Assembly (NCBI GenBank): GCA_016188425.1
Contig: JACPHX010000016.1
Location: 22,161 to 86,160, forward strand
Length of the DNA stretch: 64,000 nucleotides
Direction: 5' to 3'
Origin: Candidatus Uhrbacteria bacterium
GTDB taxonomy: Bacteria > Patescibacteriota > Patescibacteriia > UBA9934 > GWF2-40-263
The translations under genes and the position numbers were made by a program. Below the pieces are notes generated by a model. It worked only from the letters and a program-made list of their open reading frames with translations. It was not told where the DNA came from and searched no databases. Below, piece after piece: positions 5,562-60,483 of the stretch (positions are counted from its first letter, which is position 1; every line of letters begins with the position of its first letter).

Positions 5562-5571
5562 GCACAAACTT

Positions 5572-5622
5572 CGGGCAACCCCACCCTGCCCTCCCCTTGG
5601 CAGGGGGGGGTTCTGTGTCGGA
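5572..5622. repeat. GC-rich hairpin element family 1, copy immediately downstream of the recA stop
   Basis: ttcgggcaaccccaccctgccctccccttggcagggggggttctgtg. The stem is ccctgccctcccctt/ggcaggggggg. It may also serve as the recA terminator hairpin, but there is no T-tract. Confidence 0.55.
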
Positions 5623-5691
5623 TTCGACAGCCCAACCTTCTGGAGGAGGGGCTTTTTATGAAAAAACAGACAATCTCTAGGAGACTGCCTG

Positions 5692-7458: not shown

Positions 7459-7577
7459 GTAAAGAACTCCTCTCCGAAATAATAGCGCAAGATTGCGCTA
7501 GAAAAACTATAGCTTTTTATGGGGGAGGAGGCAACAAAAAGGCGGGGGCAGGGACCCCGCCTATTCTCTATTGGATC

Positions 7578-8144
7578 TTATTCGTTCACGCGTTCGACAT
7601 ATTCACCGTCTTCAGTGTTTACGATGATATGGTCGCCTTGGTTGATAAAAATGGGGACGCGAACGGTAAGCCCATTGTCCATTTTTGCTTCTTTCCGCAC
7701 GTTTCCCGAAGCGGTATCCCCTTTCACGGCCGGTTCGGTCTCGACTACGGCGTAGGTGATCTTCTTGGGAAGCTCGATCGTCAACGGCGTTTCCCCATGG
7801 ATGACCACCGTCACCTCCAACCCTTCTTTGAGGTAGTTCACATCATCGCCAACATCTTCCTTCGTGAGCGAAATCTGTTCATAGTTTTGGGTATCCATGA
7901 ACGTGTACAGAGAGCCGTCTGTGAAAAGATACTGCATCTTTTTGTACATGACATCCTCAAACGCCACGGATTCCGCTGACTTGAACACGTGTTCAACCAC
8001 CTTGCCGGATCGAAGATTTTTGATGCGCGTGCGCACGAACGAGCTCCCTTTGCCGGGGGAGACGCGCTGAAAAGAAATGACGACGTTGAGGTCGCCAGAA
8101 AGGTTGATGACCGTACCTTTTTTGATGTCGTTGGGGGAAGACAT
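7578..8144 (-). CDS. efp: Elongation factor P
   Basis: 188 aa from the internal Met (MSSPNDIKKGTVINL...). The KOW-like N-domain has a conserved SPGKGSSF loop (modifiable Lys), and there are OB domains II/III. The ORF track ORF is N-extended to 8255, probably spuriously. No SD. Confidence 0.9.
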   Translation of the reverse strand: MSSPNDIKKGTVINLSGDLNVVISFQRVSPGKGSSFVRTRIKNLRSGKVVEHVFKSAESVAFEDVMYKKMQYLFTDGSLYTFMDTQNYEQISLTKEDVGDDVNYLKEGLEVTVVIHGETPLTIELPKKITYAVVETEPAVKGDTASGNVRKEAKMDNGLTVRVPIFINQGDHIIVNTEDGEYVERVNE

Positions 8145-10754: not shown

Positions 10755-13700
10755 CTAGCGGTTGGATATGAGAGGGACTAAGCGCATTTGGTGATCGATG
10801 GATGGAGCCGCGGCGCGGGCGGCGGTTGGGTCGAAAACATCCCGGTTTACTTGGGAGAGCGGTATCCCCTTTTCATAGGAAGAGACGAAGGAATCCGATA
10901 GGTCGTCCACGGCTTTTTGCCAGCCAGGACCGAAATAGTCGTGCGCCACTGCCTCTGTCTCAAGCGGATACAGGATTCCTCCCGCTCCCACGCCATACAC
11001 CTTGGGATCCGACACAACCTTCACCATCTTTCCCGGTCGGTACAGCACGTCCCCCGCCAAAGGAACGGCCGCGAGATCCTGTTCAGGAATGATGATGAGC
11101 GATCGGTAATCCGAAAACCAGGTAAAAAATATGCGCTCATTGGGGAAGGCGTGGCGCTCCCCATCCATGCCGAGGTAATACACCGTCCGGCAGGGATGCG
11201 TGAAATCTTCCCACCCAGGACACTCAAATTTGAGGAGAGGCCCGCCAACCGGCTGCGCAAAAATGTCGTAACCAAACGTAGAACGTATGGATGCCTCCAG
11301 TACCTGCCGTTGATTGGTAAGAGCGGCGAGCGTTAATCCACCCGGCAAATCGTAGATGATGGTTGCTCCAACCAAACCACCAAACTGACCGCTCAATGAT
11401 TGGGCGCGGGCGAAGAGTACATACACCCCTTCTGCCGCAGGAAGCGTATAGGTCGTTTGCGTCACGCCCCCTTGCATGGGCTGCCACAGCGCCCCCGCAA
11501 ACGTCGGGTCGGGAGAAATCTGGTTCTGGCTTGCTCCGTAGGATTGATAGGTAACCTGGATCACGGGAGAATCTGTCACTGACGCTCCCCCATTTAGGAG
11601 CAGACGCCCCGCCACGGGCGCCATGGTCGTGAGAGCAGAGGCGCGCGGGTTTGGGGGTGGGGGCGGGGCGACCGATTGGAGATAAATGAGATAGGACGCT
11701 CCGCGATCTGCTCCAGAGGAACTTTCAGTCGGGGTGCCTGTCAAAAAATCCGGAACGCCATTCCCATCCAAATCACTCACCATGGCGACCGACCTCCCAA
11801 ACCCGCCGGGGGATGGAATCTGCGGGGATCCGGTTCGGTTCGGAAGAATATTCATGGTACGAATGATCGTCCCGTCCGCATTGAGAAAATGGACATACGC
11901 CGCCCCCATATCCGTTCCGATCGTATCTGTCCCAGGGGCGCCTACAACCAAATCTTGAATGCCGTCCGCGTTCACGTCCCCCGCAAAGGCAACGGAAGCG
12001 CCATACTGGTCCCCTGCCATCACCGGAGCGCCAAAGAAAGTTTGTCCTGTTAATTCAATCGTCCTTTTCACGGACCCGTCCATATTCATGAGATGGATGA
12101 ACACGCTCCCCTGTTCTTCCCCCAGAACCAGCCGCTCCGGAGCGCCAACGGCGAGATCCTGGACGCCATCATGATCGACATCTCCGATCAGCGTCACGGA
12201 CTGGCCATAGCCTTCATCAATCCCAAGACCAGCCGGCCCATTGGGAGAAAGATTGTTTATGGAAACCGTCCGTTTGACCCGGCCATCCGCTTGCAAGAAA
12301 TGAATATACACATTGCCTGCGCCGCCGTTTGCAAGCGGAGTCGACACGGCCAAATCCGCGATCCCATCGCGATCTAAATCCCCTACGCCCGCAAGCGAAG
12401 TCCCGTATTCGACTCCCGCGGAATGCAACGGACCATTTGGCGTAGCAGAATTGATCTCCGCTGTGCGTTGGATGCTTCCATCCCGGCTCATGTAGTGGAT
12501 GAATACCGCACCTTGGGCCATCCCTGGGTTTTGATCATGTGTCGCAGAAACGGCGATCTCTTGAACGCCATCGCGATCCAAGTCACCAATCAGAGTCATG
12601 GCGCTTCCGTAGCGATCCTTGGGGAACAGGAGCGCGCCTCCCCGGGTAAAGGCATTCAGTTCCGTTGTTTGCTTCACCCGTCCGTCTGCTCGAAGGAAGT
12701 GGATGTAGGCAGACCCAACTTCGATGCCTCCTGTATTGTCGTCTGGAGATCCAACCAGAACATCGGCGACACCGTCACGATCCAAATCCCCGATGCTGGT
12801 CACAGAACTTCCATACTGATCCAAATCCGACAGGACAGGGCCATTCTCAACCGCCTCGCGAATGACGACCGATCGATTCGGCTCCGCGTACGAGTATGTC
12901 GCCGTCCTCCAGGAGAAGGCATTGCGGCCAACCACCGCATCAGGAAAATCTTCCTCGGCGAAAATGCCTTTAAAAAGCCAGCTGTCGTCCACATCGATAA
13001 AATCATCGGCCACCTCTGCCCCGACGACATTCAAAAACGCAGGCGTTCCAGAGACGGTCGAACGAATGCGCAGCCGATTCGTCGTGGAAACGCCGCGTGC
13101 CTCAAACCGATGCAGGATGGATTGGGTGATCATGGGCTCAAACAGAACCGTTTGCGCTCCGATCAGATCCAAATCGTAAAAGGTGTTCGACCCGAGTATG
13201 GTTTGCGTATTGGAAGGGCGATCGAAAATGAAATGTGCGGTTCCAGGATCAAACCCGCCCGTGAGATGCCGGAAGTCCCCGGAGATATGAACGGTTGCCG
13301 TCCCCGCATGAACCGTGCCTCGATACTCGTTGCGCCATCGTATGGTGCCGACGTTCAAATCGACGTCGATGGTCGCATCCGCTTGTGAAGCGTTACCGTC
13401 GAAGATGGCTCCATGGTCCACGACCGCCCCGACGCCAGGCGCCCCGCCCAAACAGTTCTGCCAGTTCGCGGGCGTGCTCCATTTTCCGTCCCCGGAGGCG
13501 TTGATCCAGATACATTCTGCCCCAGGCTCCCCTGGGCCATCCGGATCCCGGGGAGAAAAAGGAACAAAACTCACATACACCACCCCCTTCTCTACTCCAG
13601 TCGCTTGTTCATGAGAAAGACCGGACGCAAAATCCACGAGCCCATTTTTATCCATGTCCCCCAAGGCCGAGAGCGACATTCCCAAACGAGGAAATCGCTG

Positions 13701-15518
13701 GATCGAACTGACCTCTGGAGTGCTTTGCACGATAAATTCTGTTTTTAGAACGGATCCATCTGCGGCCATCTGATGCACATACAGGCCGCCGACCGGCGCC
13801 CCATCAACATCCCTCCCCGGGGCGCCGACAAGCAAATCGGGGACGCCGTCCCGATTATAATCACCCACGCCGATCACCGCGTGCCCATAGGCATCAAAAT
13901 CAGAAAGCTGCGGACCGTTCATGGTCGTCTTGTCGATGAATACCGTCCGCTTCACGCTGCCATCCGCATTCATCAAGTGAATATACAGCATGCCGCGATC
14001 TGTCCCCCCTCCGTTAGTAAACGGCGCTCCAACCGCCATGTCCGTCACCCCGTCGCCATCAAGGTCACCGATGGATCCGAGCGCAAACCCGTATCTCCCG
14101 TTTGCCTCGAGGCCCGCCGGTCCGTTGCTGGTCAGACGATCTATCGTAACGGTCCGTTTCACGGAACCGTCTGTTTTCATGAAATGAATGAACAGCCGGC
14201 CAAATTGGCCATCTGCCCCGCTGGCCCCAACCGCCAGATCCGCCACCCCATCGGCATCGATATCTCCCAGCGAGGCGAGGGAGGATCCGTAACGATCCCC
14301 CGCCACAAGGACGGCTCCGTTTGGCGTGAGGCCATCTAGGCGGATCGTCCGGCTGATGCCGCCCGCGAGCGTGAGCGAGTGAATTTGCACGGCCCCCGCC
14401 CCTCCGTTTGCCCCCGGAGAACCAACCGCCACCTCCACGGCTCCGTCATGGTTCAAATCCCCCACCGCTGCCACCGACGATCCGTACAGATCCCCGGCCG
14501 CAAGCGCGGGACCATTGGGTGTGGCGGCGGTAATTTGTGCGCTTTGCCTCACAGACCCATTTTGATTCAGGAAAGAAAGATACGCCGACCCTGCCTCCGG
14601 GGCCGATGCATCGTTGTTGGGCGAAGCCATGAACAGATCCGTCGTCCCATTGCGGTCTACATCTCCCACATTGGCCACCGCATAGCCGAACCGGTCACCG
14701 GCAACAATGCCTTGAGGCCCATTCACGACCGAACCGTCAATTTTGATAAAAGGAGCCCGACTGGGTTCGGCATCCCGCCCTGGGGCAAACCATAAACGGT
14801 TATTCCCGCGATTTTGCGAGTTCTGCGGATTGAGTGGACGCACCCCGTCCTGCACGAGCCATTGGTCTTGCACGTCTACGTGAGTCGCGCTCGCTGCTGC
14901 CCCTTTCACGTTGATGATGGACGCGAGGCCGGGGATACGCGAGACGATTTTCAATGGCTGGCCACCTGTCACTCCCGCGGCCTGAAAAGCGGCGGTGACG
15001 CGTGTCGTCACCCCTGGCTCCAAGACTATGGTTTGTCCCCCCAAAAATCGAAGCGTTGAAAAAGCAGTCGCCCCTGTGATGGTTTGAGAGGAACCGGCCG
15101 CACCGTCAAACACCACCGTAGAGGTAGCTGCGACGAATGTCCCTCCCAAATGGGAAAAATCCCCTTTGATTTGCATGGTATGGGTGCGCGCCGTGAAGAA
15201 ACCATTGTAACTTTGCAGCATCCGGAAAGAATTGATGGAAACTGAACGGTCTAAAAAAGCATTCGATTGAGAAACCGTGCCATCAAAAACCACATCCGCC
15301 CCCGTAACGATCCCTACCCCAGGCACCCCTCCCAAACAGCCGCTCCAGTTCCCCGCATTGTTCCACAACTGCGTGCCCGCCCCATTGGTCCACGTACAAG
15401 TGGCGGGAACAGCAGAGCGACCGATGCGAATGCCGTAGAAGGCAATGACAACCGCCGTCAAAAAAACACACGCAAGGACAGAGGAACGGCGACGCGAAAC
15501 AGCGCGGAAGGAGAGCAT
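10755..15518 (-). CDS. Giant membrane-anchored FG-GAP (integrin-alpha-like) repeat protein, 1587 aa
   Basis: N-terminal TM anchor. The N-terminal module is duplicated (CTWTNGAGTQLWNNAGNWSGCLGGVPGVG / CIWINASGDGKWSTPANWQNCLGGAPGVG). Roughly 20 FG-GAP-type repeats follow (YGSS..xxGDxDxDGVxDLxVGAP), then a Pro-rich linker and a ~230-aa C-terminal domain. Confidence 0.75.
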   Translation of the reverse strand: MLSFRAVSRRRSSVLACVFLTAVVIAFYGIRIGRSAVPATCTWTNGAGTQLWNNAGNWSGCLGGVPGVGIVTGADVVFDGTVSQSNAFLDRSVSINSFRMLQSYNGFFTARTHTMQIKGDFSHLGGTFVAATSTVVFDGAAGSSQTITGATAFSTLRFLGGQTIVLEPGVTTRVTAAFQAAGVTGGQPLKIVSRIPGLASIINVKGAAASATHVDVQDQWLVQDGVRPLNPQNSQNRGNNRLWFAPGRDAEPSRAPFIKIDGSVVNGPQGIVAGDRFGYAVANVGDVDRNGTTDLFMASPNNDASAPEAGSAYLSFLNQNGSVRQSAQITAATPNGPALAAGDLYGSSVAAVGDLNHDGAVEVAVGSPGANGGAGAVQIHSLTLAGGISRTIRLDGLTPNGAVLVAGDRYGSSLASLGDIDADGVADLAVGASGADGQFGRLFIHFMKTDGSVKRTVTIDRLTSNGPAGLEANGRYGFALGSIGDLDGDGVTDMAVGAPFTNGGGTDRGMLYIHLMNADGSVKRTVFIDKTTMNGPQLSDFDAYGHAVIGVGDYNRDGVPDLLVGAPGRDVDGAPVGGLYVHQMAADGSVLKTEFIVQSTPEVSSIQRFPRLGMSLSALGDMDKNGLVDFASGLSHEQATGVEKGVVYVSFVPFSPRDPDGPGEPGAECIWINASGDGKWSTPANWQNCLGGAPGVGAVVDHGAIFDGNASQADATIDVDLNVGTIRWRNEYRGTVHAGTATVHISGDFRHLTGGFDPGTAHFIFDRPSNTQTILGSNTFYDLDLIGAQTVLFEPMITQSILHRFEARGVSTTNRLRIRSTVSGTPAFLNVVGAEVADDFIDVDDSWLFKGIFAEEDFPDAVVGRNAFSWRTATYSYAEPNRSVVIREAVENGPVLSDLDQYGSSVTSIGDLDRDGVADVLVGSPDDNTGGIEVGSAYIHFLRADGRVKQTTELNAFTRGGALLFPKDRYGSAMTLIGDLDRDGVQEIAVSATHDQNPGMAQGAVFIHYMSRDGSIQRTAEINSATPNGPLHSAGVEYGTSLAGVGDLDRDGIADLAVSTPLANGGAGNVYIHFLQADGRVKRTVSINNLSPNGPAGLGIDEGYGQSVTLIGDVDHDGVQDLAVGAPERLVLGEEQGSVFIHLMNMDGSVKRTIELTGQTFFGAPVMAGDQYGASVAFAGDVNADGIQDLVVGAPGTDTIGTDMGAAYVHFLNADGTIIRTMNILPNRTGSPQIPSPGGFGRSVAMVSDLDGNGVPDFLTGTPTESSSGADRGASYLIYLQSVAPPPPPNPRASALTTMAPVAGRLLLNGGASVTDSPVIQVTYQSYGASQNQISPDPTFAGALWQPMQGGVTQTTYTLPAAEGVYVLFARAQSLSGQFGGLVGATIIYDLPGGLTLAALTNQRQVLEASIRSTFGYDIFAQPVGGPLLKFECPGWEDFTHPCRTVYYLGMDGERHAFPNERIFFTWFSDYRSLIIIPEQDLAAVPLAGDVLYRPGKMVKVVSDPKVYGVGAGGILYPLETEAVAHDYFGPGWQKAVDDLSDSFVSSYEKGIPLSQVNRDVFDPTAARAAAPSIDHQMRLVPLISNR

Positions 15519-15555
15519 AGATAGGAACAGTATACAGCAAGAGGACGGATCTCTT

Positions 15556-18500
15556 TTAGGTTTTGAGGGAGGAGGCGTGAGGTGGGAGGGTGTCCGGCGG
15601 AGCCGGATCCGGCTCCGCCGGAGAGAGTGACGGGGAAGGCTTGTGTTGTGCTGTTCCGGAGGGGAGAGGGCTCATGTCTACACGCATGCTCAACAGTTCC
15701 GGCTGTTTGATAGAACGATAATCGATAGGACGCACCTCGGTGGTTTGATACCCTTCCTTTTCGAAGGTGGCGTAATACTCGTTGGGACCAAGAAGGAAGT
15801 GGTAGCGTCCGTTGCGGTCGGTAAGACGGGAGTCGATAAGCTTGTTGTAGAGCGGCTCAAACACACGGATAACAGCATCTCGCAACGGTTTTTTCGTGGA
15901 CTTGTCATATACGATCCCCCAGCTCTTCGGTTTGCGCGGGCGAACCAGAACGAACACAAGAACGAGCAAGACGACCTGCAAAATGAAGACACCGATTGTG
16001 AACGCAGAAGGATGAAGAATAAGGACGACAAGCGCCAACACGACGCTCGCCCACGAGAGCGCCGACTCAAGGCGGCGAAGGCGACGTTTCCAACGAATAC
16101 GCAACGCTTCTTTTTCTCCCTTTTCCAAAATGGGATCTAGCGGGATATTGGCGCTAATAACGGCGTTTTTATCTGTCACGCGGATCACCTCGCCGTGATA
16201 GACATCCAAATATTCGCCATCCGTACGAACTTTCTTGAGCCATTCGCTTGGGAAGGAAAACTCCGGCTTGGTCACTTCAATTTGATACTCGCCAGGATCC
16301 GCCAGAAATTCATACATCCCATCTTTCCCAGTGACCCGCGTACGCACCACCTTCGCGTCGGGCAAACGCAGGAGACGGACGACCGCCAATTCAACCGGCA
16401 GCTTTATCCCCGAATGGTACACGACCCCGTATCCTTTTCGTTTCCGCTTAAAGAAAAGACGCAGGGGTTGGGTGAACAAGAGCTGAAGGAACGGCCACAG
16501 TTGGAATTGCAACAACAGAAAACCGATACTGATAGCAGAAAGCGGAACGAACATGAAAGAGAAGCCATCAGCAATCCCGCTCAACAAAGCCCACAGCGAA
16601 AGCTCCGGCCCGGGAATCATAATCTGGGGGTTGATGATGCGGTCTCCATCATCCTCAACCGGCGACCACCCGCTTCCAAGGAGATCCTTAACTCCCTCCA
16701 CGGAATACCGTCCGGCAGGAACATACCAGTAAAAACTGCCATCTACTGGAGTTTCTAAAGGATTCTGTTGGAAAAATGCCGCAATGTTCATGGGGCGATC
16801 TAGCCCGAACTCACGCACATACAGCCGCGCAGAGGCCCCCGAGAGCGGCTGGATAATGCCATCTTGATTCCGCCACACCAACCGGCCGCGCGGCTGCGCC
16901 TCCAGCACATAAGAAAACGACTGCTGCGTGCGATCCTGATAGGTCACCAAGAGAAGCAGGGCGTAATTGCTGACGACGGCAGGGACACGCAAGGTTCCGA
17001 CCCATCCACGATCATCCGTGACCAGCGAGGAAGAACTCGTAGAAAAGTAGGCGTCTATCTTTTCGATCGCTTTGGTTCCCTCATCTGGAATGAGACGCAC
17101 TTGAACGTCTGTATCCACCACCGCGCGGAAACGAATTTCCTGAAGCGGCAGTTCGATTGTCTCGCTTTGTACAAGGAAATGATTCTCTTCCCCAGAAAGC
17201 TCCCCCGGGCGAAGCGGAAACGCCGTGCAATCAACCGGACAGGTCAGAATACTCTCCCCTTTTCCGCAAAATCCGTTTCCACACGCGATGGTGCACCCAG
17301 GGCCGACGCAAATGGGACAGGCCGACCCTACGCAAGGGAGCGGGCAATCCCTCACGCAACTTGCCGGGTCTTCACCGATGCCGCAGACGAGATCACCGCA
17401 GACGGGCGCGCATCCTGGCCCCGTACACGCAGAACAGCCAGGACCGACGCAGGCCACACAATTTGGCCCTGTGCACGGTGCTGGACAATCGATAATGCAG
17501 TTGGCGAGATCCTCCCCGATGCCGCAGACGAAATCTCCACAGACGGGCGTACAGCCAGGGCCCGTACAGGACGCCGGGCAATCGATAATGCAGTTGGCCA
17601 AATCTTCATTCAGGCCGCAGATAAAGTCTCCGCAAAAACCGTTTGTCTGCAATAAGGTTTTGCACGCAATATCTCCCGTCTGGTCAGAGAGAGCCCCGCT
17701 TTGTGACAAGTAGCGCGCCGTATAGGTCGTATCTTGCTGCAACCCGGTCACGGGGAAGGAATGCGAAATGACATACGCGTTGTTCACGAGATGCACGTTC
17801 TTATTGTTGGGATCTGCGCCATACAGCACATCCCCGTCCGCAGGGATATTCGTCTCCCATGCCCAGGTAAGCGAATTATACGAAACGTCCTCGCACCGAG
17901 GGTTGGAAATAAGCACCGGGACGCCAGAGGGACAAACGGGGGTGGCATTGGTAAACGCCCCTGTATAAAATTGGTTCACGCTATCGTACCCGAACACCCC
18001 GTAATAATACGTCGTCCCCGAAACCGCGCTTGAATGGACAAACGTCGTGCTGGCACCATCGTACAGCACGGTTCCGTCATTCTCATCCGCGGGGTAGGTA
18101 TCCGTCCTATACACCACGCGCGCGCCCACCAAAGGCGGAGGAAGCGTCCAGGTTAAACTGTTCTGGCAAAACCCCGGCGTCACGGTAACGGTTATGGGAG
18201 TAATCGGGGGCAAGCCGAAGGGGATGCCGGAATCCAGCGCGATGGGCGCGAACGACCCATTGCTATCAGAGGCGAACGCCGCGTAAAAATATTCCTGACC
18301 GGATACGATCCCTGGGTGCATGAGCGAGCTTCCGGGGCCATCATACAAAAACGTACCATCGGCAATACTGACTGGATAACGATCCAATCGATAAACGATG
18401 ACGGTGTCGACATAAGGAAATCCGGAGGGCGAATACCACGCCAAGTTGTTTAAATACAGCCCAGGCGTGACATCGAGCACTAAACTGACAACCGCGGAAC

Positions 18501-19704: not shown

Positions 19705-19752
19705 AAAAAGTCGATAGGAATTACGGGGCTTGGGATAGCTAGGGAAGAAATA

Positions 19753-25700: not shown

Positions 25701-28700
25701 TAGGCGTCGTGCGAACCCCATACCCTTCCGTGATCGAGGCCGCCGATTGGGCGGCAATTTGTACATTGATCCCCAAAGCATCGGCGATATCCGCCGCCGC
25801 GCTGGTCGCTTCGCTGCTGATGACAGATTCAAGACCCGTAAGCGTCAGAACGCCATCCGTATCGCCGGCAGCGGTGATGGCTTGGAAATACCCGGCCATG
25901 GAACTGTTCAAGGCGGCGGAGGCATCATACCGGTTCGAAACGCGCAGTACTTGTGTTGCGTCGGCTGAAAGGTCTTCGGCTAAATGAAAGACGCGCGTGG
26001 AAGAGGCGACTTCTCCCAGATCCCCGCCGATGAACCGGCTCCCCATAATGCCGTGGCCTGTCACAAGAAAATCTCCGGAAAGCGTAAGATTCTCGGTGGG
26101 GGTCGTATCTCCAAACCCGGCGAATCCGCTGCTCTTATCCAGATAGAAATCGTCGACGAAGAAGGCGATGTCTGCATTCCCCGTTGCGTCTGAAGCAAAA
26201 TTGAAAATATCCTGTCCTGCATCGGTATAGGTAAGCAGCCCTTCCGCCGTCGCAGAGGTGCCGATATGGAGCGTCGCGGGGCCCAAATACAAATCCTTCC
26301 AGCGCTGGCCGGCCGAGCCGAGGTCGTAAAAATCATCGGTTTCCGGGATGAAATCGGACGCTATATCCGCGTTAAAATCGACGGTATCGGTGGCGTCCGC
26401 ACCGAAGGTGATATTCCCACTGTCATCAAAAAGCGCAAAGGTCGAACTTGCATCTTGGATCGCTATGTCACCTGTGGTTGTCAGATCAAAGAAAAGACCC
26501 GTGGCAGAATCCACGTCCATCGTCTTGTCTCCATCATTGTCATAAACAGAATCCAACGTATCCGCGCCGCCGGTTGCGGCAAGATCGGTCCAGGTGGTTC
26601 CGCTTCCGGCACTCGTGTTGACCCAGGTCGTTCCGGCCTGATCCAAGTAAAGGGATCCTTCATTGGCCGTCACAGATCCATTAGGATCCCCAGAACCTGT
26701 ATATAAGCTGGCGGAGGTGGCACCAAATGTCAGACGGATGTATTCCGCGTCTGCAACCCCTTGTTCCACATCCAGTCGCGCGTCGGGGGTGGCGGTATTG
26801 ATCCCGACGAAGCCCGCTTGTCCACTCACGACGGATCCGTTCACGGTAAAGGCATCAATGCTTCCCCCAATCGCTGTGATGAAAAAATTATCTGATGCTG
26901 AAGCCAATTCCCATGTCAAATCCCCGGAATCGACCTCGATTAATTCTGTTCCGCCCCCATAGTTGTCGTAGGCGTCATCGAGCGTTGGGCTGCTCCCGCC
27001 GCTAAGGTCTATCCATGTATCAGCCCCATCGGTATTGACCCAAGCCGTCCCTCCCGCCCCATCTTGGTCGAGATAGATCGAACCAATGCCGCCAAACGTG
27101 TTAATCACCAGATTCGGATCCCCAGTTCCTGTATAGATACCGGGAATGAGGCCGGAAGTTTGGTCGTTCAGTGAAATAAACTTGTTGTCCTCTGGTCGAG
27201 AAATGGTGGCAAGCGAGTCGGTATCTGGTGTTGATGTCCCAATCCCGAGCCTTCCGCCTTCATCAACGACAAAGCCGGCGCCCCCGAGGTAGCGTATCGG
27301 GAACGTCTCCGTGGCGCCCGCCCCCGTGAGGTCTTCGATGAGCAGGCCGTTAAACGAGTTCACGACGCCGCTGCTGGCCAAATCCGGCCCGTTCACGACA
27401 AACGCGCCGTACGAATCGATGTCGCCAGAATCGAGGATGATCGGCCTCCCGTGGAAGCTGTATCCGGTGGGAAGACTCGCCGTTCCGTCATTGACGACCT
27501 GCCCGTTCACGCCAACCAGCACCGTTGCCAGATCATATCCAAAGGTATCGATGTTCCCGATCGCATTCCCTTCCGTACCGATAAGAGTTCCCAGTTTCAC
27601 TGCGGCTCCAGACGTATTCTGCGCGGTGGCCTGAAAAACGCCGGCGGTATTCCCGGAAAAACCCACCGAAGTCGCGGTAAAACGGGAGGAAGCGCGAAGA
27701 ACCTCATCGCCATCGGCCGTCATGTCTTCCGCCAGATGCAAGACGCGATCCGTGAAAGAGACCTCCCCCAAATCGCCTCCGTTGAACCGATTTCCCATGA
27801 TGCCGTGGCCTGTCACGAGATAATTTCCAGATACGGTGAGGTTCTCGGTGGGGGTAGTATCCCCCAAGCCGACGAACCCGGCGCTTTTATCAAGATATAT
27901 GTCGTCTGTAAAGAATGCGATGTCTGCATTCCCTGTGGCGTCAGAAGCAAAATTAAAAATATCCTGACCTGCGTCGGTATAAGTGAGCAGCCCTTCCGCG
28001 GTCGCAGACGTGCCTATATGGAGCGAGGCAGGCCCTAAGTATAAATCGCGCCATCGCTGGCCGGCAGAACCAAGATCAAAGGCAATGTCGGTTTCCGGAA
28101 TAAAATCCGAGGAGATATCCGCGTTGAAATCGACCGTATCGGTTGCGTCCGCACCGAAGGTGATATTCCCATTATTGGCAAATCTGGCAAATGTGCTCCC
28201 TGCATCCTGAATGACAAAATCTCCGGTCGCAGCCGTGATATTGAAGGTAAGGCCTGCTCCTCCTGCGTCATCGATCTCCATGATGAGGTTCCCATCCGCA
28301 ATCGACTCGGCGTAGACCTCATCGAAGTTATCGACTGTGCTTGCACCAGCCAGGTTAGACCACACGCTCCCCGTCGCGCCGACGGACGTGTTTACCCAAG
28401 TGACGCCAGTCTGATCCAGATAGATGGACCCGCGCGCCGCCGTCACTCCGCCATTGGGATCCCCGCTTCCCGTAAGAATTCCCGTGGAAGCGCCATTTCC
28501 TGTATCGGTAAGGTTGATATAAACGTCGTCTTCGCCCGCATTGGCAGATTCGATGTCGATGGCGCCATCAGGCGTGGTCGTATTGATGCCCAAAGAACTG
28601 CGCAGGTAGGTTTGCCCGCCGGAGGTCAGAAAAAATTGAACCGTTTCGTCTCCAGAGACATCCGATGTTACTTCAAACAGCCGATCCGCATCCGCGGTCG

Positions 28701-29388
28701 ATTCTGAATCGATATCAACCAACGCATCCGTATCCACGCGGTTCAACGTCGTGTTGTCGATATTGAGCGCATTGGTGAGCTGCAGGTTCCCCGTGGAATC
28801 TGTGACGGTCACGATGCTGTTGCCGCCAACCTGCGAGGGGAAAAATCCATCCAGACTCTCCGCATTAAGGGCGTACGATGACGCCCCCATGCGGATGCGC
28901 GGAGTCATCTCGGGATCGGGGGAAATCGTCAGTCCAAGGTAGACGGTGGAGGTGTCGGCAAACAGGGAACTCGGGATGAAATTTTGACCCGTGTCGCCCA
29001 AAAGGAGAGAGAACACGCCGTCTGTGACGGTCACGGAAACCGTGCCGTCTGGCGTATCGCCGGCACAGTCTATCGTCGCGGTATTGGCATCGGTATTGCC
29101 GGCGCTCCAAAGACAGACGCCTGCGGCGGCGGCATCATAAAACGCAAAAAACATTGAGTAGACGCCGTCATCGACGGTAACGCGCTGGTCATCGGTAAGC
29201 TTCGCTTGAAAAGGGATCAGCCGAGGTGGTGTGACCGCCAAAGCAGTGGCGGCTTGCGTCATGTTTATGATGGCCACCGATACGCAAACAACAGCGCGAA
29301 TCAACCGATTCGTGCGTTTGGAAAACGGATGAATGTGTCCCACCAAACGATGGGAGAAATGGCCTCCGTACATAATCGGGGCAAGCAC
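19753..29388 (-). CDS. Giant repetitive surface protein, 3211 aa (signal peptide; Thr/Asp/Gly/Ser-rich beta-repeat modules; duplicated C-terminal ~150-aa domains; Pro/Glu-rich C-tail)
   Basis: Longest ORF in the window. Signal-like region RLIRAVVCVSVAIINMTQAATALA. Paralogous over the N-terminal ~140 aa and several internal modules to ORF 39697..46914. Contains multiple internal tandem duplications. Antisense ORFs in the ORF track are GC artefacts. Confidence 0.8.
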   Translation of the reverse strand: MLAPIMYGGHFSHRLVGHIHPFSKRTNRLIRAVVCVSVAIINMTQAATALAVTPPRLIPFQAKLTDDQRVTVDDGVYSMFFAFYDAAAAGVCLWSAGNTDANTATIDCAGDTPDGTVSVTVTDGVFSLLLGDTGQNFIPSSLFADTSTVYLGLTISPDPEMTPRIRMGASSYALNAESLDGFFPSQVGGNSIVTVTDSTGNLQLTNALNIDNTTLNRVDTDALVDIDSESTADADRLFEVTSDVSGDETVQFFLTSGGQTYLRSSLGINTTTPDGAIDIESANAGEDDVYINLTDTGNGASTGILTGSGDPNGGVTAARGSIYLDQTGVTWVNTSVGATGSVWSNLAGASTVDNFDEVYAESIADGNLIMEIDDAGGAGLTFNITAATGDFVIQDAGSTFARFANNGNITFGADATDTVDFNADISSDFIPETDIAFDLGSAGQRWRDLYLGPASLHIGTSATAEGLLTYTDAGQDIFNFASDATGNADIAFFTDDIYLDKSAGFVGLGDTTPTENLTVSGNYLVTGHGIMGNRFNGGDLGEVSFTDRVLHLAEDMTADGDEVLRASSRFTATSVGFSGNTAGVFQATAQNTSGAAVKLGTLIGTEGNAIGNIDTFGYDLATVLVGVNGQVVNDGTASLPTGYSFHGRPIILDSGDIDSYGAFVVNGPDLASSGVVNSFNGLLIEDLTGAGATETFPIRYLGGAGFVVDEGGRLGIGTSTPDTDSLATISRPEDNKFISLNDQTSGLIPGIYTGTGDPNLVINTFGGIGSIYLDQDGAGGTAWVNTDGADTWIDLSGGSSPTLDDAYDNYGGGTELIEVDSGDLTWELASASDNFFITAIGGSIDAFTVNGSVVSGQAGFVGINTATPDARLDVEQGVADAEYIRLTFGATSASLYTGSGDPNGSVTANEGSLYLDQAGTTWVNTSAGSGTTWTDLAATGGADTLDSVYDNDGDKTMDVDSATGLFFDLTTTGDIAIQDASSTFALFDDSGNITFGADATDTVDFNADIASDFIPETDDFYDLGSAGQRWKDLYLGPATLHIGTSATAEGLLTYTDAGQDIFNFASDATGNADIAFFVDDFYLDKSSGFAGFGDTTPTENLTLSGDFLVTGHGIMGSRFIGGDLGEVASSTRVFHLAEDLSADATQVLRVSNRYDASAALNSSMAGYFQAITAAGDTDGVLTLTGLESVISSEATSAAADIADALGINVQIAAQSAASITEGYGVRTTPIITAAGNIDTYYAFSVNETSDTGAGSVGTFYGLAVDDLSTAASVRADVLRYFGTNPVVITDTSRLGIGTITPDTYIDISDAENTSLMRLTDETNADEVDFYTGTGTPTHSAESGSLYLDQAGKAWVNSSAGDAGTTWTDLAGAGTTPDFDEVYAQSITNTNLTMEVDDTTGLTFDLTTTGDFKIADAGTPFATFANTGFVGIGSTTPDALLDIESSNPADQDEFLRFSDTTAGVSVGVFTGSGDPNTIVTANEGSLYLDQAGTTWVNTSAGSGTTWVDLSAGGGGGGGWTDDGTLVRLTTATDNVTVGSATNLSAQLATDGNADEIQLLIQANATQTSNLVVVENNGGATDYFTIDGSGNGFFNNNIDLGSSTADLVSVNGLVDTSILPPTSNSLTLGDDTHRWADLFVQPGSLHIGTSTTDEGTISYDTTNNILQISSTPSLGNGTMQFIEDINGNAFFTFYNADTFGGAAAGTEDVGINFDVRDTVGTQTTIARMEANSIDPTDTSEDAALDFSIMDDGTFSPGMRLDDESRLGIGNQSGSFVAPDGALTVSNGTNTFDIFNLYDNTSQVFTVLDGGNVGIGTIAPAGRLEVIADSASAIDGVVIDTTGIGTLTDIRLQNSGTITNITNGAMQIEEASNGNALFTLYNSDNFGGAAAGTEDIVLNFDTKDDTNTQTTFASIEGNNTDPTNGSEDAALDFRVMDDGTFSPGMRLDDESRLGIGNQSGSFVAPDGALTVSNGTNTFDIFNLYDNTSQVFTVLDGGNVGIGIVAPTGQLHIDTNGAAVSDAIRISTSSGSLTDAIEIAGAATTGIHLSNTGIGTDISFQNGETLSNDINGTFRFSSTSTNGDQNILEILSTNIDVGSVFLYDNVTNADALSIGKVLDITAEHSTSESSSWTSNTIDVRSALSGSVTGGTISAFETLWTAPVGGGVNVTEEVFRIRNQNISDAGVSDNNVSQLLYIDNADVDDLSDIIVDNGITIDSTGGMGITNGLYVSGTVGTISDGIEIGTGVTTGINISGAQTIGLNFSSLSIGTDIRLQNGETISNGVADGAFTFTSNATTGSVIDVVTSAISSGSIFNFDNVTSGDSFSIGKVLDLTAHYSTSESSTWTSNTIDVRSTLSGSVTGGTISAFETLWTAPVGGGVNVTEEVFRIRNQNISDAGVSDTNVSQLLYIDNADVNDLSDITVDIGLRIDSTGDMGITNGIVVNSTSGTITNGLVFSNGAGANMTTDITLQQGETIDNDGTDGTIAIGATILDVNGVIKTDFNGAATTNGVCHSGADSDTTATDRELVVCSAAPDDIAEWYETTGDETAGDLVVATDSTITYEADEVEPLTGILTGGKIVSDLTVLDKSSTPYESRIVGIVSTSPAQSYGRGVIDAATYPKAIATAGRVPLKVSDENGAIRPGDPITSSSTAGAGMKSTLPGMVVGMALDSWTGPGVGTIRVYVQPSWHSGAVIANDGSVATVEQALAINRVIAATAVDQAQGSHALAFRGSAWDSSSSVAVDRAISIALEVTDKNEYRLSYKDSLDQEIAYLTQDGAMSLAGDLWIGGNLYPSDRGTKQTNKYIYYDGSAGPGGDLMRTNASGWGTGSYDFAEMFPSKDQLEAGDVVIFSVSDTEHVSRSTGKTYDGLVAGVVSTKPGFLAGDNRAGDFPIALAGRVPTKVTDENGAIEIGDSLTTSSVPGVAMKATEDGPVIGYAMEPYTASSPDNLIITFINLSHTGGAAVAPIDNVASGISSNAQLSSLDMYGSVYLHGNHLLDVGKLVGMGNTWSVDEAGLFATVASYNVVIRSYQNENVSAHAMLTTDHSVFLSGSATLSQGEATVSFEDVDASFNDITSTSSPISVVTTANGPAYVYVSQKDNNGFTVRQLDGMDSGIVVDWHVTAVRKDHEDVVEEAVEPPPIEGVMPPTDPVTDPIVPPSDPPADPIDPPVVEEPPAVEEPTVTEEPPLVEDPPVAEEPVVPPEAVIDPASVPVTP
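21328..22011. repeat. 684-bp tract near-identical (by eye roughly 93-96%, no indels) to 41248-41931 in the paralogous giant gene
   Basis: Encodes MTTDITLQQGETIDNDGTDGT...IRVYVQPSWHSG in both proteins. Identity drops abruptly at both ends (ggtggtcat | divergent). Confidence 0.85.
22100..23250. repeat. In-gene tandem duplication A (~636-bp period, two units) within the 3211-aa ORF
   Basis: Protein units SIGKVLDITAEHSTSESSSWTSNTIDVRSALSGSVTGGTISAFETLWTAPVGGGVNVTEEVFRIRNQNISDAGVSD... repeated at ~95% identity. The nucleotide motif atctgcgttatcaat...attgtgaaacatt recurs at 22165 and 22800. Confidence 0.8.
23400..24520. repeat. In-gene tandem duplication B (558-bp period, two units) within the 3211-aa ORF
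   Basis: Antisense ORFs 23453.. and 24011.. begin with identical 47-aa strings. The sense strand encodes ...DAALDF..MDDGTFSPGMRLDDESRLGIGNQSGSFVAPDGALTVSNGTNTFDIFNLYDNTSQVFTVLDGGNVGIG twice. Confidence 0.85.
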
Positions 29389-29483
29389 CCGAATGCGTGT
29401 TCGATGATTATATCATCAAACGCACATCCCGGCTCGCCCGCCGTATCCCTTTTAAGAAACGGCGGACGAGTGGAGTCCGTACG

Positions 29484-30452
29484 CTATGGACGCTTGGACT
29501 TGCTCATCATGGCTTTCGCCACGATCCAGCGGTTGTATTGCTTGAGGAGCAATGCGGCCGCCACGAGCAGGATCAGGAACAGCACGATCAAGAGCCATGG
29601 AATCACCCAGAACGTGGTCTGGGCAGACACGGTCTCTTGGCCTCCTGCTCCGAAATGAAGCACGAGAGACGCGGTATACGGCCCGAAGCCGAAATTGCGC
29701 CACTCCTTCATAAATTCGGAGGCATCGTCTTTGAGGGCGCTTTTCTGCCACGCGGCAGAAAACACGCGCTCGGAATTTGGCAGGACATTTCGTCCGTCGC
29801 CGTTCACGGGGAGAGCGGCAGATTCCCCCCCCAGGAAGTTCGTGACCCGAATAGCCCCGCTGGGTTTCAGATGCACGGTTCCCGAGTTTTGGAATTTGAT
29901 GTCAAAATCCACGGGCAAGCTGCTGTAGGTCCCTTTGGGAATCGAGAACGCGGTAATCCGTCCCGTCTCCTGCACGGCTCCGTCTACGCGAAGGAGCAAC
30001 AAGGTAGCAATCTCGGCGACCGTCCCGATCTGCTGTTTTGCCACCGGGCTGCTGGTCGAGAAGATCAGTCCCCCGAAATATCCCCCAGGGGAGGCATTGC
30101 GGGGAACGGAGATGTTATAGGTGACGAATTTTGTTTCTCCTGGAGCCAACGTGACTGTTTTCTCTGTAAAGGATACCCAATCTACCAAGGAGCGGGTCGT
30201 GGACTTTCCAATGAAATTGGGGGCGCCTTGCACGCCCGTGGCCTCAAAATCTTGGATTTCCGTGAAGAACGTAGATGATTCCTTCCCCTCGTTGCGCAAG
30301 CGGATCGAGCCGACAAAGGCATCGCCGGGGCCCACTTCGTATTCGACAAGAACGGGGCTGATGGTAAGGGCCTCTGCATCGTTTTGGACGACCGACAAGA
30401 GCGGGAACGCCAAAACGAGGGCGGCCAATACACAGGTAAGATTCCTCCTCAT
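29484..30452 (-). CDS. DUF916/DUF3324-like cell-surface protein with signal peptide and C-terminal TM anchor plus basic tail
   Basis: Signal MRRNLTCVLAALVLAFPLLSVVQNDAEA. Two beta-rich modules (ISPVLVEYEVGPGDAFVGSIRLRNEGKES; TLAPGETKFVTYNISVPRNASPGGYFGGLIF). C-terminal helix WLLIVLFLILLVAAALLL followed by KQYNRWIVAK. This architecture matches CscA-type DUF916 proteins of Firmicutes WxL clusters. The family call is from memory and not verified. Confidence 0.5.
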   Translation of the reverse strand: MRRNLTCVLAALVLAFPLLSVVQNDAEALTISPVLVEYEVGPGDAFVGSIRLRNEGKESSTFFTEIQDFEATGVQGAPNFIGKSTTRSLVDWVSFTEKTVTLAPGETKFVTYNISVPRNASPGGYFGGLIFSTSSPVAKQQIGTVAEIATLLLLRVDGAVQETGRITAFSIPKGTYSSLPVDFDIKFQNSGTVHLKPSGAIRVTNFLGGESAALPVNGDGRNVLPNSERVFSAAWQKSALKDDASEFMKEWRNFGFGPYTASLVLHFGAGGQETVSAQTTFWVIPWLLIVLFLILLVAAALLLKQYNRWIVAKAMMSKSKRP

Positions 30453-30462
30453 AATGGGTTTG

Positions 30463-31674
30463 TTAGAAGGTCGCCGTCGCGATGAATCGCATGGCGTCCG
30501 TATAATCAGTGTGGGCTTCTGTGGCACCGGAAATCGCCGCTTTCACGGCAACGCGCGCTTCTCCGCCCGCCACAGGACCGGCCGCGGTGAATATAGGCTC
30601 CGCCGCGGAGCTGGAAGAAGGAGTGACGCCGACGGTATGGTCGCCGGCACCGGCCGTACAGCCGTCCGCGCTCACGTCCCCGTCATAATCGCCATCCATC
30701 AAGATCGTTCCTGTAGTCGCCGAGGTAGAAACAATGCAAATTCCATATCCTTCCGTCCCGGCGACAAGGGCGGTCGCGGCCGAGGTAATCGTGTCCCCTG
30801 GCACCGAGGCCGAGGCCAAATCGATCACGGTATCCGTATTGATGACGGTCACGACGAATCCATCGGTGGCATTGGTGGCAATGTCGAACCAAATGGAATT
30901 GATGGAGCCGCCCGAAGAGGAAACCGCGCTTGAGGTAAGCGTTCCCAAGGCAACCGGAACGGTCGCCGGGTTCGTCTCCGTGTGCGTGATCCCCACATCG
31001 ATATCGAAGGTGAGGGACGCATCCACAGATGCAGTAATCGTAACCGTATCTTCTTCCACGATAGCGACGCTATCCGTTGCCGCATGGGCCGCTGACGTTC
31101 CTTCGTCATCCATCGAGAAATTGAGCGTGTAGCTTCCTGCGGTCGCTGGGTTGATCAGTTCTCCATCTGCCGAGGTTCCATCGATCGTGAATGTCACGAT
31201 CGCGGCGGCGCCAGACGCGGTATACGATGCTCCGCAAGGAATGACGCGGAAAGCGATCGCGGTCGTGTCGATGGCGACACCGACGTTATTTGCTCCATCG
31301 GCACAGGCCACCGTTGTCGTACCGGCGCCGGCGGAAACGGCATTGACTGTGCGCGCCGTCCCATCATTGAAGGTAAAATCAGCGGTTGCCCACGTTCCGG
31401 ACTGCGTAAAAGCAGCCGTTTGAGGGAAATCGTAGATAAGGACATCGGTGGAGCCCGAAACATCGAACGTCGTAGCCGCGGGAAGCGTGAGCAAGATCGT
31501 ATGATCTGCGTTCGTGCTTATTTTGAGCCTGGTCATGGTGTCTTTCACCGCCGTAAACTGCGCGGCGCTGGCCGGGCTTGCGTAGGCGACGAGGGAAACC
31601 AGCATCGCGGCGACAAGCACCCGCGCGATGTTGGTTTTCCAAGAACTCGTTTCAATAACATTCAACATAGTCAT
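30463..31674 (-). CDS. Secreted Thr/Ala/Ser-rich beta-protein, 403 aa (signal peptide)
   Basis: Signal VLVAAMLVSLVAYASPASAAQ. Low-complexity beta-strand-like composition. Ends in aromatic F. Same strand and tightly spaced (10-nt gap) with the DUF916-like gene. Confidence 0.5.
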   Translation of the reverse strand: MTMLNVIETSSWKTNIARVLVAAMLVSLVAYASPASAAQFTAVKDTMTRLKISTNADHTILLTLPAATTFDVSGSTDVLIYDFPQTAAFTQSGTWATADFTFNDGTARTVNAVSAGAGTTTVACADGANNVGVAIDTTAIAFRVIPCGASYTASGAAAIVTFTIDGTSADGELINPATAGSYTLNFSMDDEGTSAAHAATDSVAIVEEDTVTITASVDASLTFDIDVGITHTETNPATVPVALGTLTSSAVSSSGGSINSIWFDIATNATDGFVVTVINTDTVIDLASASVPGDTITSAATALVAGTEGYGICIVSTSATTGTILMDGDYDGDVSADGCTAGAGDHTVGVTPSSSSAAEPIFTAAGPVAGGEARVAVKAAISGATEAHTDYTDAMRFIATATF

Positions 31675-31849
31675 AATAATCAGTCTCGGAGCGTTTCATG
31701 AAAAGTCGCCCCGAAACAAAAGACATATGTACATTCGACCTTTATTCTGCCTGTGGAAGGTAGCCCTTGCTTCACAGCAGACGTCCCTTGATCTTGGGAC
31801 GTCTGTGGTGAAGAGAGGGTGAAAAATTTTATATGCTAGGCATGCTCTC

Positions 31850-32515
31850 CTAAAAATTAGACGTCGCAATTATCCTGTAAAGCCCCGTGTAGCTCCCTGC
31901 CACCGTAAGGGTGTCAATGGCGGCTTTGAAGGTAATGGTGGTATCGCGCCCCGTCCCCCAAATCGTCCGCGAGGCAAGAATGAGCGGCGTGGCGCTGACC
32001 GCTTGGTCTGTGGCAAAAGCCGCGTCAGCACCGGAAACCGCCACTCCAAACTCTTCGCTTCCGGCAGTGACTGATCCGTCTCCCACATCGTCGATGGTAT
32101 CGAAGGTCGCATTTTGGATCTCCTGGATTTCGGTCATGGCGAGCGTGTAGCCAAAATCCGCATTCGTGGTGACCGAAGCGGTCATGGAGGCGGTACTGAC
32201 CGTTCCGGTAGTAAGGGCGCTTGGGGAAAGAGGCATGCTCACGTCGTCTAGAGACAAAATAAGGATCGGTTCCTCATACACTTCCTCAAACCCATTGAAT
32301 GTTTTGTAGCTCGTGCTTTCCCCTTGGTTCCCCGATCGATCCCCTGTGGCCTCTTGGACGATGTAGTTGGTGGACGTCGCCCGGTTCCCTCCGCTGGTCG
32401 TCGCATCGGCCCACATGATGTAGCTTGGAGAGGAAGATTCAGCCGACGCAAAGAACGGCACCGATGCCGAGAGCATGATCACCCCCACGATCCAGCTGCG
32501 AACAGACACGCACAT
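31850..32515 (-). CDS. Small secreted protein, 221 aa (signal peptide), first gene of the surface-protein operon
   Basis: Signal MCVSVRSWIVGVIMLSASVPFFASA. Ends ...RIIATSNF. Followed by a 10-bp-stem hairpin (31773-31810) before the next gene. Confidence 0.5.
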   Translation of the reverse strand: MCVSVRSWIVGVIMLSASVPFFASAESSSPSYIMWADATTSGGNRATSTNYIVQEATGDRSGNQGESTSYKTFNGFEEVYEEPILILSLDDVSMPLSPSALTTGTVSTASMTASVTTNADFGYTLAMTEIQEIQNATFDTIDDVGDGSVTAGSEEFGVAVSGADAAFATDQAVSATPLILASRTIWGTGRDTTITFKAAIDTLTVAGSYTGLYRIIATSNF

Positions 32516-36763: not shown

Positions 36764-36839
36764 GGGCTCTTAGCTCAGTTGGTAGAGCGCTTCCATGGCA
36801 TGGAAGAGGCCAAGGGTTCGAATCCCTTAGAGTCCACCA
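36764..36839 (+). tRNA. tRNA-Ala (anticodon GGC)
   Basis: Cloverleaf folds manually: acceptor GGGCTCT/AGAGTCC with G3:U70, D arm GCTCAGTTGGTAGAGC, anticodon loop ATGGCAT, T arm AAGGGTTCGAATCCCTT, encoded CCA. Confidence 0.9.
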
Positions 36840-47435: not shown

Positions 47436-47462
47436 ATATGTAAAAATTCCAAATTCTAATTT

Positions 47463-47504: not shown

Positions 47505-47531
47505 TGCTTGGGATTTGATGCTTTCCATTTT

Positions 47532-60482: not shown

Positions 60483-60483
60483 T

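Follow-up and report, generated by a model that had tools for sequence, protein, structure and literature searches.

On the minus strand of a 64,000-nucleotide stretch of a Candidatus Uhrbacteria genome (Patescibacteria, Parcubacteria group), the whole of which we call the window, positions 10755-32515 carry six long uninterrupted open reading frames (ORFs) of 221, 403, 347, 3211, 1382 and 1587 amino acids. We describe this gene cluster and argue that part of it likely encodes a divergent pilus of the Pam type recently reported from the Candidate Phyla Radiation (CPR). The gaps between the genes measure, in gene order, 175, about 10, 95, 48 and 37 nucleotides. An earlier note on this DNA, made from the sequence alone, had described the coordinates, strand and tight spacing exactly as they are found here; it spoke of seven genes while listing six, and the gaps are too small to hold a seventh. 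A simple hydropathy scan, which also supplied the transmembrane (TM) segments given below for the chaperone and the anchor, placed an N-terminal hydrophobic export segment on all six products, in agreement with that note. Because the frames are unbroken and homologues exist elsewhere, the six genes are not pseudogenes, a possibility the note had raised. The NCBI entries identical to proteins of the locus are hypothetical proteins of Candidatus Uhrbacteria bacterium (HYV73_03300, HYV73_03305 and HYV73_03310). Pfam has no match for the 221-, 403- or 3211-residue proteins; no usher family matched the six proteins or the scanned flanking genes, and no LPXTG or CscD-like protein was noted by eye across the six sequences.

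The Pam pilus was described in a preprint (Troman et al., bioRxiv 10.64898/2026.03.03.709456) reporting cryo-electron microscopy (cryo-EM) of filaments of the saccharibacterium Ca. Mycosynbacter amalyticus, in which PamA and PamB were seen to assemble by donor strands. PamA, PamB and PamE are pilins of two domains; PamT, the tip pilin, has a single domain and lacks the linker; the chaperones PamC and PamD are PapD-like and end in a C-terminal TM helix; and PamR, an RbmA-like protein of the base, carries an N-terminal strand, two FnIII domains and a C-terminal TM helix. The same study noted that pam operons have a tail-fibre-like protein as a central neighbour, and described the homologues as predominantly in Saccharimonadia and Microgenomatia. 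Three NCBIfam models (2026) derive from it: NF058578 (PamR), NF058579 (PamT) and NF058581 (the Pam pilin C-terminal domain).

The first gene of the cluster (31850..32515, minus strand) encodes the 221-residue protein, which consists of a signal peptide, an N-terminal segment (residues 26-84) with three conserved S-x-N-Y/F-x-[IL] motifs, and a C-terminal truncated immunoglobulin (Ig)-like acceptor domain (residues 85-221). It matches CPR_pilus_PamT (NF058579) with an E-value of 3.5e-11 and 43 bits, where the equivalog cutoff is 240, and CPR_Pam_pilin_C (NF058581) with an E-value of 1.6e-5 and 25 bits, where the cutoff is 55. The C-terminal domain of its AlphaFold2 (AF2) model resembles chaperone-usher pilins, and no linker or donor-strand motif was found in the protein. 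It is thus a PamT-like homologue and not a PamT equivalog, since its architecture (an acceptor domain only, with no linker motif) fits PamT despite the low score. Segment 26-84 is conserved throughout the family and aligns to the canonical PamT model, yet is predicted at a local confidence (pLDDT) of only 48-63.

The second gene (30463..31674, minus strand) encodes a probable two-domain pilin of 403 residues with four cysteines. Between the N-terminal region and the C-terminal domain lies a putative donor strand, the linker EDTVTITASV (31024..31053, minus strand; translation verified), followed by DASLTFDID, the first strand of the C-terminal domain. A corresponding linker motif, D-D-Q-V-x-V-T-A-x-V, is conserved in the pilins of related loci L001, L007, L011 and L012 and in the consensus of the pilin-family alignment, so that the family pattern is a linker (EDTVTITASV or DDQVxVTAxV) and then the first strand of the acceptor domain, for example DPTLTFDID. 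BLASTP comparisons of the 221- with the 403-residue protein, and of the latter with the N terminus of the 1382-residue protein, were not significant, and profile methods were needed: the profile of the 221-residue family aligned with the C-terminal domain of the 403-residue protein at an hhalign probability of 93.8% (E-value 1.7e-7). The window member itself has no match in Pfam or NCBIfam. However, 14 of the 51 members of its family match CPR_Pam_pilin_C directly (best E-value 7e-38), and on this evidence the 403-residue family is taken to be continuous with canonical Pam pilins, the window member being too divergent to score. The earlier note had named WxL-like and pilin-like folds as those to look for in the small proteins, and the AF2 model of the 221-residue protein favors the second: both appear to be donor-strand-type pilins. 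A Pfam scan of the small proteins detected no WxL domain (PF13731), and searches of PDB sequences with the pilin profiles matched neither a WxL chain nor any deposited Pam structure.

The third gene was called by its longest ORF (29484-30527) at 347 residues and by NCBI at 314 residues; the probable true start is M26 at position 30452, 10 nucleotides past the pilin stop codon, giving a protein of 322 residues (29484..30452, minus strand). In the numbering of the 347-residue ORF, a C-terminal TM helix spans residues 308-326. The AF2 model, built from a 93-sequence alignment, has a pLDDT of 94.5 and comprises two beta-sandwiches and a long C-terminal helix (286-319). In Foldseek comparisons against PDB libraries, its best matches were the WxLIP of Enterococcus faecium (9i1y) and the same protein bound to a long WxL partner (9i25), at an E-value of about 4e-12, followed by RbmA and then by the chaperone-usher chaperones CfaA, CsuC and Caf1M; the WxLIP, CfaA, CsuC and Caf1M matches span E-values of 1e-12 to 1e-7. 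Judged from the model, the protein is a PapD/FimC-like chaperone with a C-terminal TM helix, as expected of a Pam system. A tie to that system comes from P0054, a homologue (E-value 1.5e-32) that occupies the chaperone position, that is, the PamC/D slot, of the canonical pam operon L006. No Pam chaperone model in NCBIfam matched the 347-residue protein or its homologues at an E-value of 10 or better, and this includes the chaperone-position protein of L006.

The same gene had been predicted to encode a DUF916/DUF3324-like anchor, and the first part of that prediction finds partial support in the TM helix, the WxLIP fold and a sub-threshold match to PF06030 (DUF916, WxLIP_PGBD), which scores 22 bits under a cutoff of 27.3 and is reached at E-values of 0.01 or better by 36 of the 93 chaperone-family members. 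The second part has no HMM support: DUF3324 (PF11797) is matched by none of the 93. In addition, a sequence profile of the CPR chaperone family finds the first domain of EfmWxLIP1 at an E-value of 2.7e-5. The 347-residue protein therefore combines a WxLIP fold with homology to the chaperone-position protein of a canonical pam operon. WxLIP proteins comprise DUF916, DUF3324 and a TM helix, and the commonest WxL cluster holds a single WxLIP together with a pair of WxL proteins, for which AF2 predicts that a WxLIP strand completes the incomplete WxL beta-sandwich (PMC10599100). Strand completion of this kind amounts to donor-strand complementation under another name. Neither WxL nor DUF916 is mentioned in the Pam preprint (10.64898/2026.03.03.709456), and our literature search found no paper tying DUF916 or WxL to Patescibacteria or to donor-strand assembly.

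The 1382-residue protein (15556..19704, minus strand) has, in order, a signal peptide, a pilin-type N-domain, a linker strand, a Gly/Pro linker, fn3-like domains, four Cys-rich repeats and a three-TM module. Its putative donor strand, DDEVEITASV (19102..19131, minus strand; translation verified), is directly followed by GAAPPPGGGGG where an acceptor domain would stand, and the protein has no acceptor domain. The pilin-family hidden Markov model (HMM) reaches 23 bits over residues 15-203 (signal peptide, N-domain and linker), and hhalign aligns the N-domain with the pilin family at an E-value of 2e-5 and a probability of 77%. The orthologous anchors of L007 (1938 residues) and L011 (1672 residues), which have the fn3 and TM modules in common with the window protein, score 173-195 bits against the pilin HMM over residues 23-219. 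Pfam identifies fn3 (E-value 8e-11) and CarboxypepD_reg (E-value 4e-13). The earlier note had expected fn3 in this protein and two CarboxypepD_reg-like domains in its C-terminal membrane region; fn3 and one of the two copies are confirmed, and the second copy shows only as a weak SdrD_B match and by eye. The predicted multi-pass membrane C terminus is borne out by TM segments at about 1047-1065, 1212-1230 and 1236-1254. Basic clusters (KRKRK and RPRKPK) follow TM helices 1 and 3, and by the positive-inside rule both CarboxypepD_reg-like domains are probably cytoplasmic. Such a location is unusual for this fold.

The anchor design recurs outside the window in more than one form. The motif followed by a Gly-rich linker is also present in the anchor of L001, and in L008, L014, L016 and L021 short proteins encoded after the chaperone carry a strand directly after the signal peptide and then a Gly-rich linker. 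In several lineages apart from that of the window, a protein of ~290-305 residues encoded just after the chaperone has a signal peptide, then the strand ENVSVSAVV, EDVSVTAQV or SDVTVTAQV, and then a Gly-rich linker, a layout that corresponds to PamR. The strand is present in the L003 and L011 anchors too, where the segment following it is not Gly-rich; in L003 the anchor is split into two genes of 644 and 1019 residues. The anchor module, at residues about 1035-1382 (15556-16600), is conserved in L001, L003, L007 and L011. The earlier note had grouped the 1382-residue protein with adhesin-like giants. From its pilin N-domain, donor strand and TM module, it is better read as a putative pilus base anchor than as an independent adhesin, and the combination of pilin N-domain, strand, fn3 and TM module makes it a candidate functional analogue of PamR.

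We screened 20 related loci, four obtained by chaperone-homologue look-ups and 16 by scanning GTDB species genomes with the pilin profile. Every one of them has a chaperone-family gene (21 of 21 with the window), and it directly follows the two-domain pilin gene in all 18 related loci that have one (L001, L005 and L007-L022), as it does in the window. Upstream, a PamT-like or short pilin gene is found in most of the loci; two chaperones occur in some, and anchors or giants lie downstream in several. By NCBIfam cutoffs, locus L006 qualifies as a canonical pam operon, with PamT at 273 bits (cutoff 240), PamR at 353 bits (cutoff 300) and two pilins that match CPR_Pam_pilin_C at 144 bits. The labels of the genomes include Uhrbacteria, Nomurabacteria, Paceibacteria, Minisyncoccota and, generically, "Saccharibacteria" or "Patescibacteria". 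Synteny in relatives, which the earlier note had set as a check, is conserved for the pilin and chaperone genes and, in at least five loci, extends to an adjoining giant. It does not extend to the FG-GAP gene, of which none of the 20 loci has a copy.

Two further arrangements were seen among these loci. In L008, L010, L014, L016 and L021 (about 13000-17400), the genes for the pilin, chaperone and short base protein are followed by a run of three to five proteins of ~290-510 residues, all combining a signal peptide with a C-terminal TM helix, which may be further membrane-tethered components of the system. In L009, L013 and L015 (about 5400-8100 or 13865-16285), two chaperone genes precede a protein of ~806 residues with about 11 TM segments, and then YchF; this multi-TM protein may be a different membrane partner in that lineage.

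Taken together, these observations make it likely that the genes at 15556-19704 and 29484-32515 encode an usher-less, chaperone-assisted donor-strand-exchange pilus, a divergent Uhrbacteria form of the CPR Pam type. The acceptor domain is common to the 221- and 403-residue proteins, the N-domain and linker are common to the 403- and 1382-residue proteins, and the linker motif is conserved in pilins and anchors and missing from the 221-residue protein; this distribution suggests a rule in which the tip is acceptor only, the shaft is both donor and acceptor, and the base is donor only. In the assembly that we propose, all subunits would be exported by Sec. The two pilins would each emerge with a C-terminal Ig-like domain one strand short, and the membrane-anchored two-Ig chaperone would transiently fill the groove of the strand-deficient domain. 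The 221-residue protein, with its acceptor domain and no linker strand, would start the fibre at the distal tip, and copies of the 403-residue protein would then join at the base, each inserting its EDTVTITASV linker into the previous subunit. Finally, the 1382-residue protein, with an N-domain and DDEVEITASV and no acceptor, would end the growth of the fibre and, by means of its three-helix module, hold it on the cell membrane. These proposed steps draw on sequence, predicted folds, and the cryo-EM structures and AlphaFold models of the preprint. The earlier suggestion of an operon for an extracellular apparatus is supported. Its description as undescribed is superseded by the preprint and NCBIfam models (2026), and the cluster is best classified with the recently described CPR Pam pilus.

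An RNA stem-loop (31773..31810, minus strand) lies inside the 175-nucleotide gap between the tip-pilin and shaft-pilin genes. Its predicted folding free energy of -35.2 kcal/mol gives a z-score of -7.26 against shuffled sequences. The hairpin had been proposed earlier and is real, although the accompanying idea that it sets apart an abundant subunit is less apt, because the upstream gene looks like that of the tip subunit. It lacks a U-tract and so is not a canonical intrinsic terminator; for want of a T-run, a terminator scan did not report it. L001, the closest relative, has a non-homologous hairpin (-33.7 kcal/mol) in the same position, directly 3' of its PamT-like gene, and L003 and L006 have hairpins 3' of their pilin genes. 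This recurrence of structure without conservation of sequence suggests a function. In other fimbrial operons, such RNA structures set subunit ratios. The most likely role here is transcript stabilization, attenuation or processing, so that the stem-loop would probably adjust transcript or subunit ratios in the assembly proposed above.

Between the chaperone and anchor genes lies that of the 3211-residue tail-fibre-like giant (19753..29388, minus strand), a recurrent neighbour of the operon. It has an N-terminal signal or anchor segment, a conserved N-domain (residues 46-215), an internally duplicated repeat region, a conserved, phage tailspike-like C-terminal module (2561-3130) and a Pro/Glu-rich tail. 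Sequence searches of Pfam, NCBIfam, PHROG and the PDB gave nothing significant, and neither a pilin domain nor the linker motif was detected in it. The C-terminal module belongs to a family of 14,862 clusters at E-values of 1e-3 or better, located C-terminally in proteins of up to about 5,500 residues. Some of these relatives pass Pfam thresholds for the Peptidase_G2 intramolecular chaperone (46.5 bits) or Phage_cement_2, and the window giant itself reaches E-values of 0.13 for Peptidase_G2 and 0.008 for K1-lyase_C. Peptidase_G2 is an intramolecular-chaperone autocleavage domain of phage tailspikes (Pfam). Orthologues adjoin the operon in L001, L003, L007, L013 and L020; that of L001 has 1372 residues and keeps both terminal modules around a shorter central part. 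Where the giant stands with respect to the anchor varies among loci, as between the window and L001, and in most loci no giant is encoded within 10 kb of the chaperone gene.

A second tail-fibre-like giant of 2405 residues (39697-46914, minus strand) is a paralogue of the first and lies outside the operon, 7 kb away. It scores 727 bits for the C-terminal module, 679 for the repeat region and 197 for the N-domain. The two genes reach 89% DNA identity over 300 nucleotides (21305-21604 versus 41225-41524), which suggests recent duplication or gene conversion, and the first giant has internal DNA duplications that are 76-86% identical. The second giant is found beyond the genes for the tetratricopeptide repeat (TPR) protein, YchF and methyltransferase, an arrangement also seen in L003. 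GC content falls to about 0.47-0.48 at 22001-24000 and 42001-44000, the central parts of both giants, compared with about 0.56 around them; the dip in the first giant coincides with its internal duplications. These low-GC regions may be rapidly evolving or exchanged cassettes. By its sequence relationships, the giant is probably a separate tail-fibre-like host-recognition fibre that is often co-located with pilus genes, a reading consistent with the tail-fibre-like neighbour noted in the preprint.

The last gene (10755..15518, minus strand) starts 37 nucleotides past the anchor gene and encodes the 1587-residue FG-GAP protein. The FG-GAP assignment made earlier is confirmed by Pfam (E-value 8e-62, 10 repeats). 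The protein has an N-terminal signal-anchor, an unassigned domain of ~250 residues present in two copies with an FG-GAP beta-propeller after each copy, and an unassigned C-terminal domain. The gene is probably co-transcribed with the operon. None of the 20 related loci that we screened has a homologue of it, and it appears to have been inserted between the operon and rpsF in this lineage specifically. We set aside both the giant and the FG-GAP protein as pilus subunits, as neither has an acceptor domain or linker motif.

Compared with the Pam system, the window has the same kinds of parts: a single-domain tip-type pilin, a probable two-domain pilin with a putative linker strand and a predicted truncated Ig-like C-terminal domain, a PapD-like chaperone with C-terminal TM helix, no usher, a putative base protein that combines an N-terminal strand with a membrane anchor, a neighbouring tail-fibre-like giant, and an occurrence within the CPR only. 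The gene order (tip pilin, pilin, chaperone, base protein) is that of the canonical locus L006. Unlike the Pam system, the window has one shaft pilin and one chaperone in place of PamA/B/E and PamC/D. The RbmA-like PamR of ~300 residues is replaced by the 1382-residue fusion anchor, with its full pilin N-domain, strand, fn3 domains, Cys-rich repeats, three TM segments and two probably cytoplasmic CarboxypepD_reg-like domains. The giant stands inside the operon, with the FG-GAP protein added at its end. The locus does not neighbour ATP-synthase genes and is flanked instead by rpsF/ssb on one side and by methyltransferase, YchF and TPR genes on the other.

With the chaperone-usher pili (Pap, Fim, Csu and CFA/I) the cluster has in common the fold of the pilin C-terminal domain and the boomerang-shaped chaperone fold. 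If the proposed assembly holds, it would also have in common donor-strand growth from the base, a tip without a donor strand and a terminator without acceptor function (compare PapH). In contrast to those pili, the cluster encodes no usher and there is no outer membrane; the chaperone is membrane-tethered, the pilins have an extra N-terminal domain, the putative donor strand is an internal linker and not an N-terminal extension, and there is no sequence similarity.

Several points weigh against a Pam-type pilus. The matches of window proteins to Pam models fall far under the cutoffs (43 versus 240 bits, and 25 versus 55) or are missing entirely: the 403-, 347- and 1382-residue proteins match no NCBIfam Pam model directly, and PamR (NF058578) was not found among the window proteins. 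In the window, the N-domain of the anchor resembles the pilin family weakly (23 bits; hhalign 77%). The host belongs to the Uhrbacteria (Parcubacteria group), whereas the homologues of the preprint are mainly from Saccharimonadia and Microgenomatia (10.64898/2026.03.03.709456). One could picture a non-filamentous complex of the WxL or cell-surface-complex (Csc) type known from Lactobacillales and Listeria, in which the WxLIP-like protein permanently holds a short and a long partner by strand complementation and no polymer forms. WxLIP is indeed both the best structural match (9i1y and 9i25) and the best sequence match (EfmWxLIP1) of the 347-residue protein, with its two Ig-like domains and C-terminal TM helix. 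A short single-domain protein, a long one extended at its N terminus and a WxLIP-like protein form a triad that parallels the commonest WxL cluster (PMC10599100), and the WxLIP strand that AF2 predicts to complete the WxL sandwich is comparable in principle with chaperone-pilin donor-strand complementation. To this extent, the analogy drawn in the earlier note stands. It breaks down at the partners, which have no detected PF13731 and no profile match to a WxL chain in the PDB, and whose families instead match Pam pilin models and include pilins that polymerize by cryo-EM. A linker motif in both the pilin and an acceptor-less anchor also fits polymerization and capping better than a static 1:1 complex. 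Furthermore, the DUF3324 HMM matches none of the 93 members of the CPR family, the hosts are CPR and not Firmicutes, and WxL proteins have been described as peptidoglycan-bound and not as filaments. We consider such a static complex unlikely.

Another reading makes a single composite machine of all six genes, with the giant and FG-GAP protein as integral parts, for example as a tip adhesin borne on the fibre. It would account for six genes on one strand with short gaps and for the giant orthologues adjoining the operon in at least five related loci, and the preprint names a tail-fibre-like protein as a central pam neighbour. Yet neither large protein has a detectable acceptor domain or linker motif, the giant changes position relative to the anchor between the window and L001, its paralogue lies 7 kb off and outside the operon, the FG-GAP protein is missing from all 20 related loci, and most loci have no giant inside 10 kb of the chaperone gene; we regard a six-gene machine as quite improbable. 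The composition of the 403-residue protein (about 42% Thr, Ala and Ser) and its lack of a Pfam match might also suggest an S-layer or cell-wall sheet protein, with the chaperone-like protein as its membrane tether. The homology of the 403-residue protein to Pam pilin C-terminal domains, the pilus-like gene context and the failure of any S-layer family to match leave this explanation very little room. A Pam-type pilus, separate from the giant and the FG-GAP protein, thus stays our preferred interpretation.

The surroundings of the locus are ordinary chromosome. One flank carries FtsK, RecA, a class-II aminoacyl-tRNA synthetase-like gene, SSB and ribosomal protein S6 (rpsF); the other carries a divergent methyltransferase, a racemase, YchF, tRNA-Ala and the TPR protein. 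The flanking methyltransferase, YchF, TPR and S6/SSB genes are kept in L001 and L003, which indicates a stable chromosomal locus. The window holds five tRNA genes (Ala-GGC, Ala-CGC, Arg-CCT, His-GTG and Arg-TCT, at 36764-36839, 47360-47607 and 60408-61464), likewise ordinary chromosomal content.

The kinship of the chaperone with WxLIP raises a broader possibility, namely that CPR Pam pili and Firmicutes WxL/Csc clusters are two branches of one ancient monoderm system, in which Ig-like subunits that lack a strand receive it from a two-Ig chaperone tethered to the membrane (WxLIP or PamC/D). We offer this tentatively, as an idea somewhat more likely to be wrong than right. Were it true, WxL proteins would count as pilin-like subunits, and WxLIP would act as a chaperone and not as an adhesin. 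The Uhrbacteria operon would then be a third design, with a terminator-anchor in which a pilin N-domain and donor strand are joined to a multi-pass membrane module; the cytoplasmic beta-sandwich domains of that module could link the fibre with the inside of the cell.

A life spent attached to host cells is presumed for Patescibacteria, and few of their attachment organelles have been described. The loci described here extend the likely range of the Pam-type pilus to genomes that carry the labels Uhrbacteria, Nomurabacteria, Paceibacteria and Minisyncoccota, where its form escapes the curated models; this range is wider than the one emphasised in the preprint (10.64898/2026.03.03.709456). The division into tip, shaft and base provides a testable assembly rule, with a base subunit that comes in several interchangeable architectures. 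What is new is the host lineage, the giant fused architecture of the anchor and a link, made explicit here, from Pam-type chaperones to WxLIP. This link connects the Pam chaperones to the WxLIP of enterococci, lactobacilli and Listeria, the same fold having been read as a chaperone in one literature and as an adhesin in the other, and it bears on WxL clusters that have been implicated in virulence and gut colonization.

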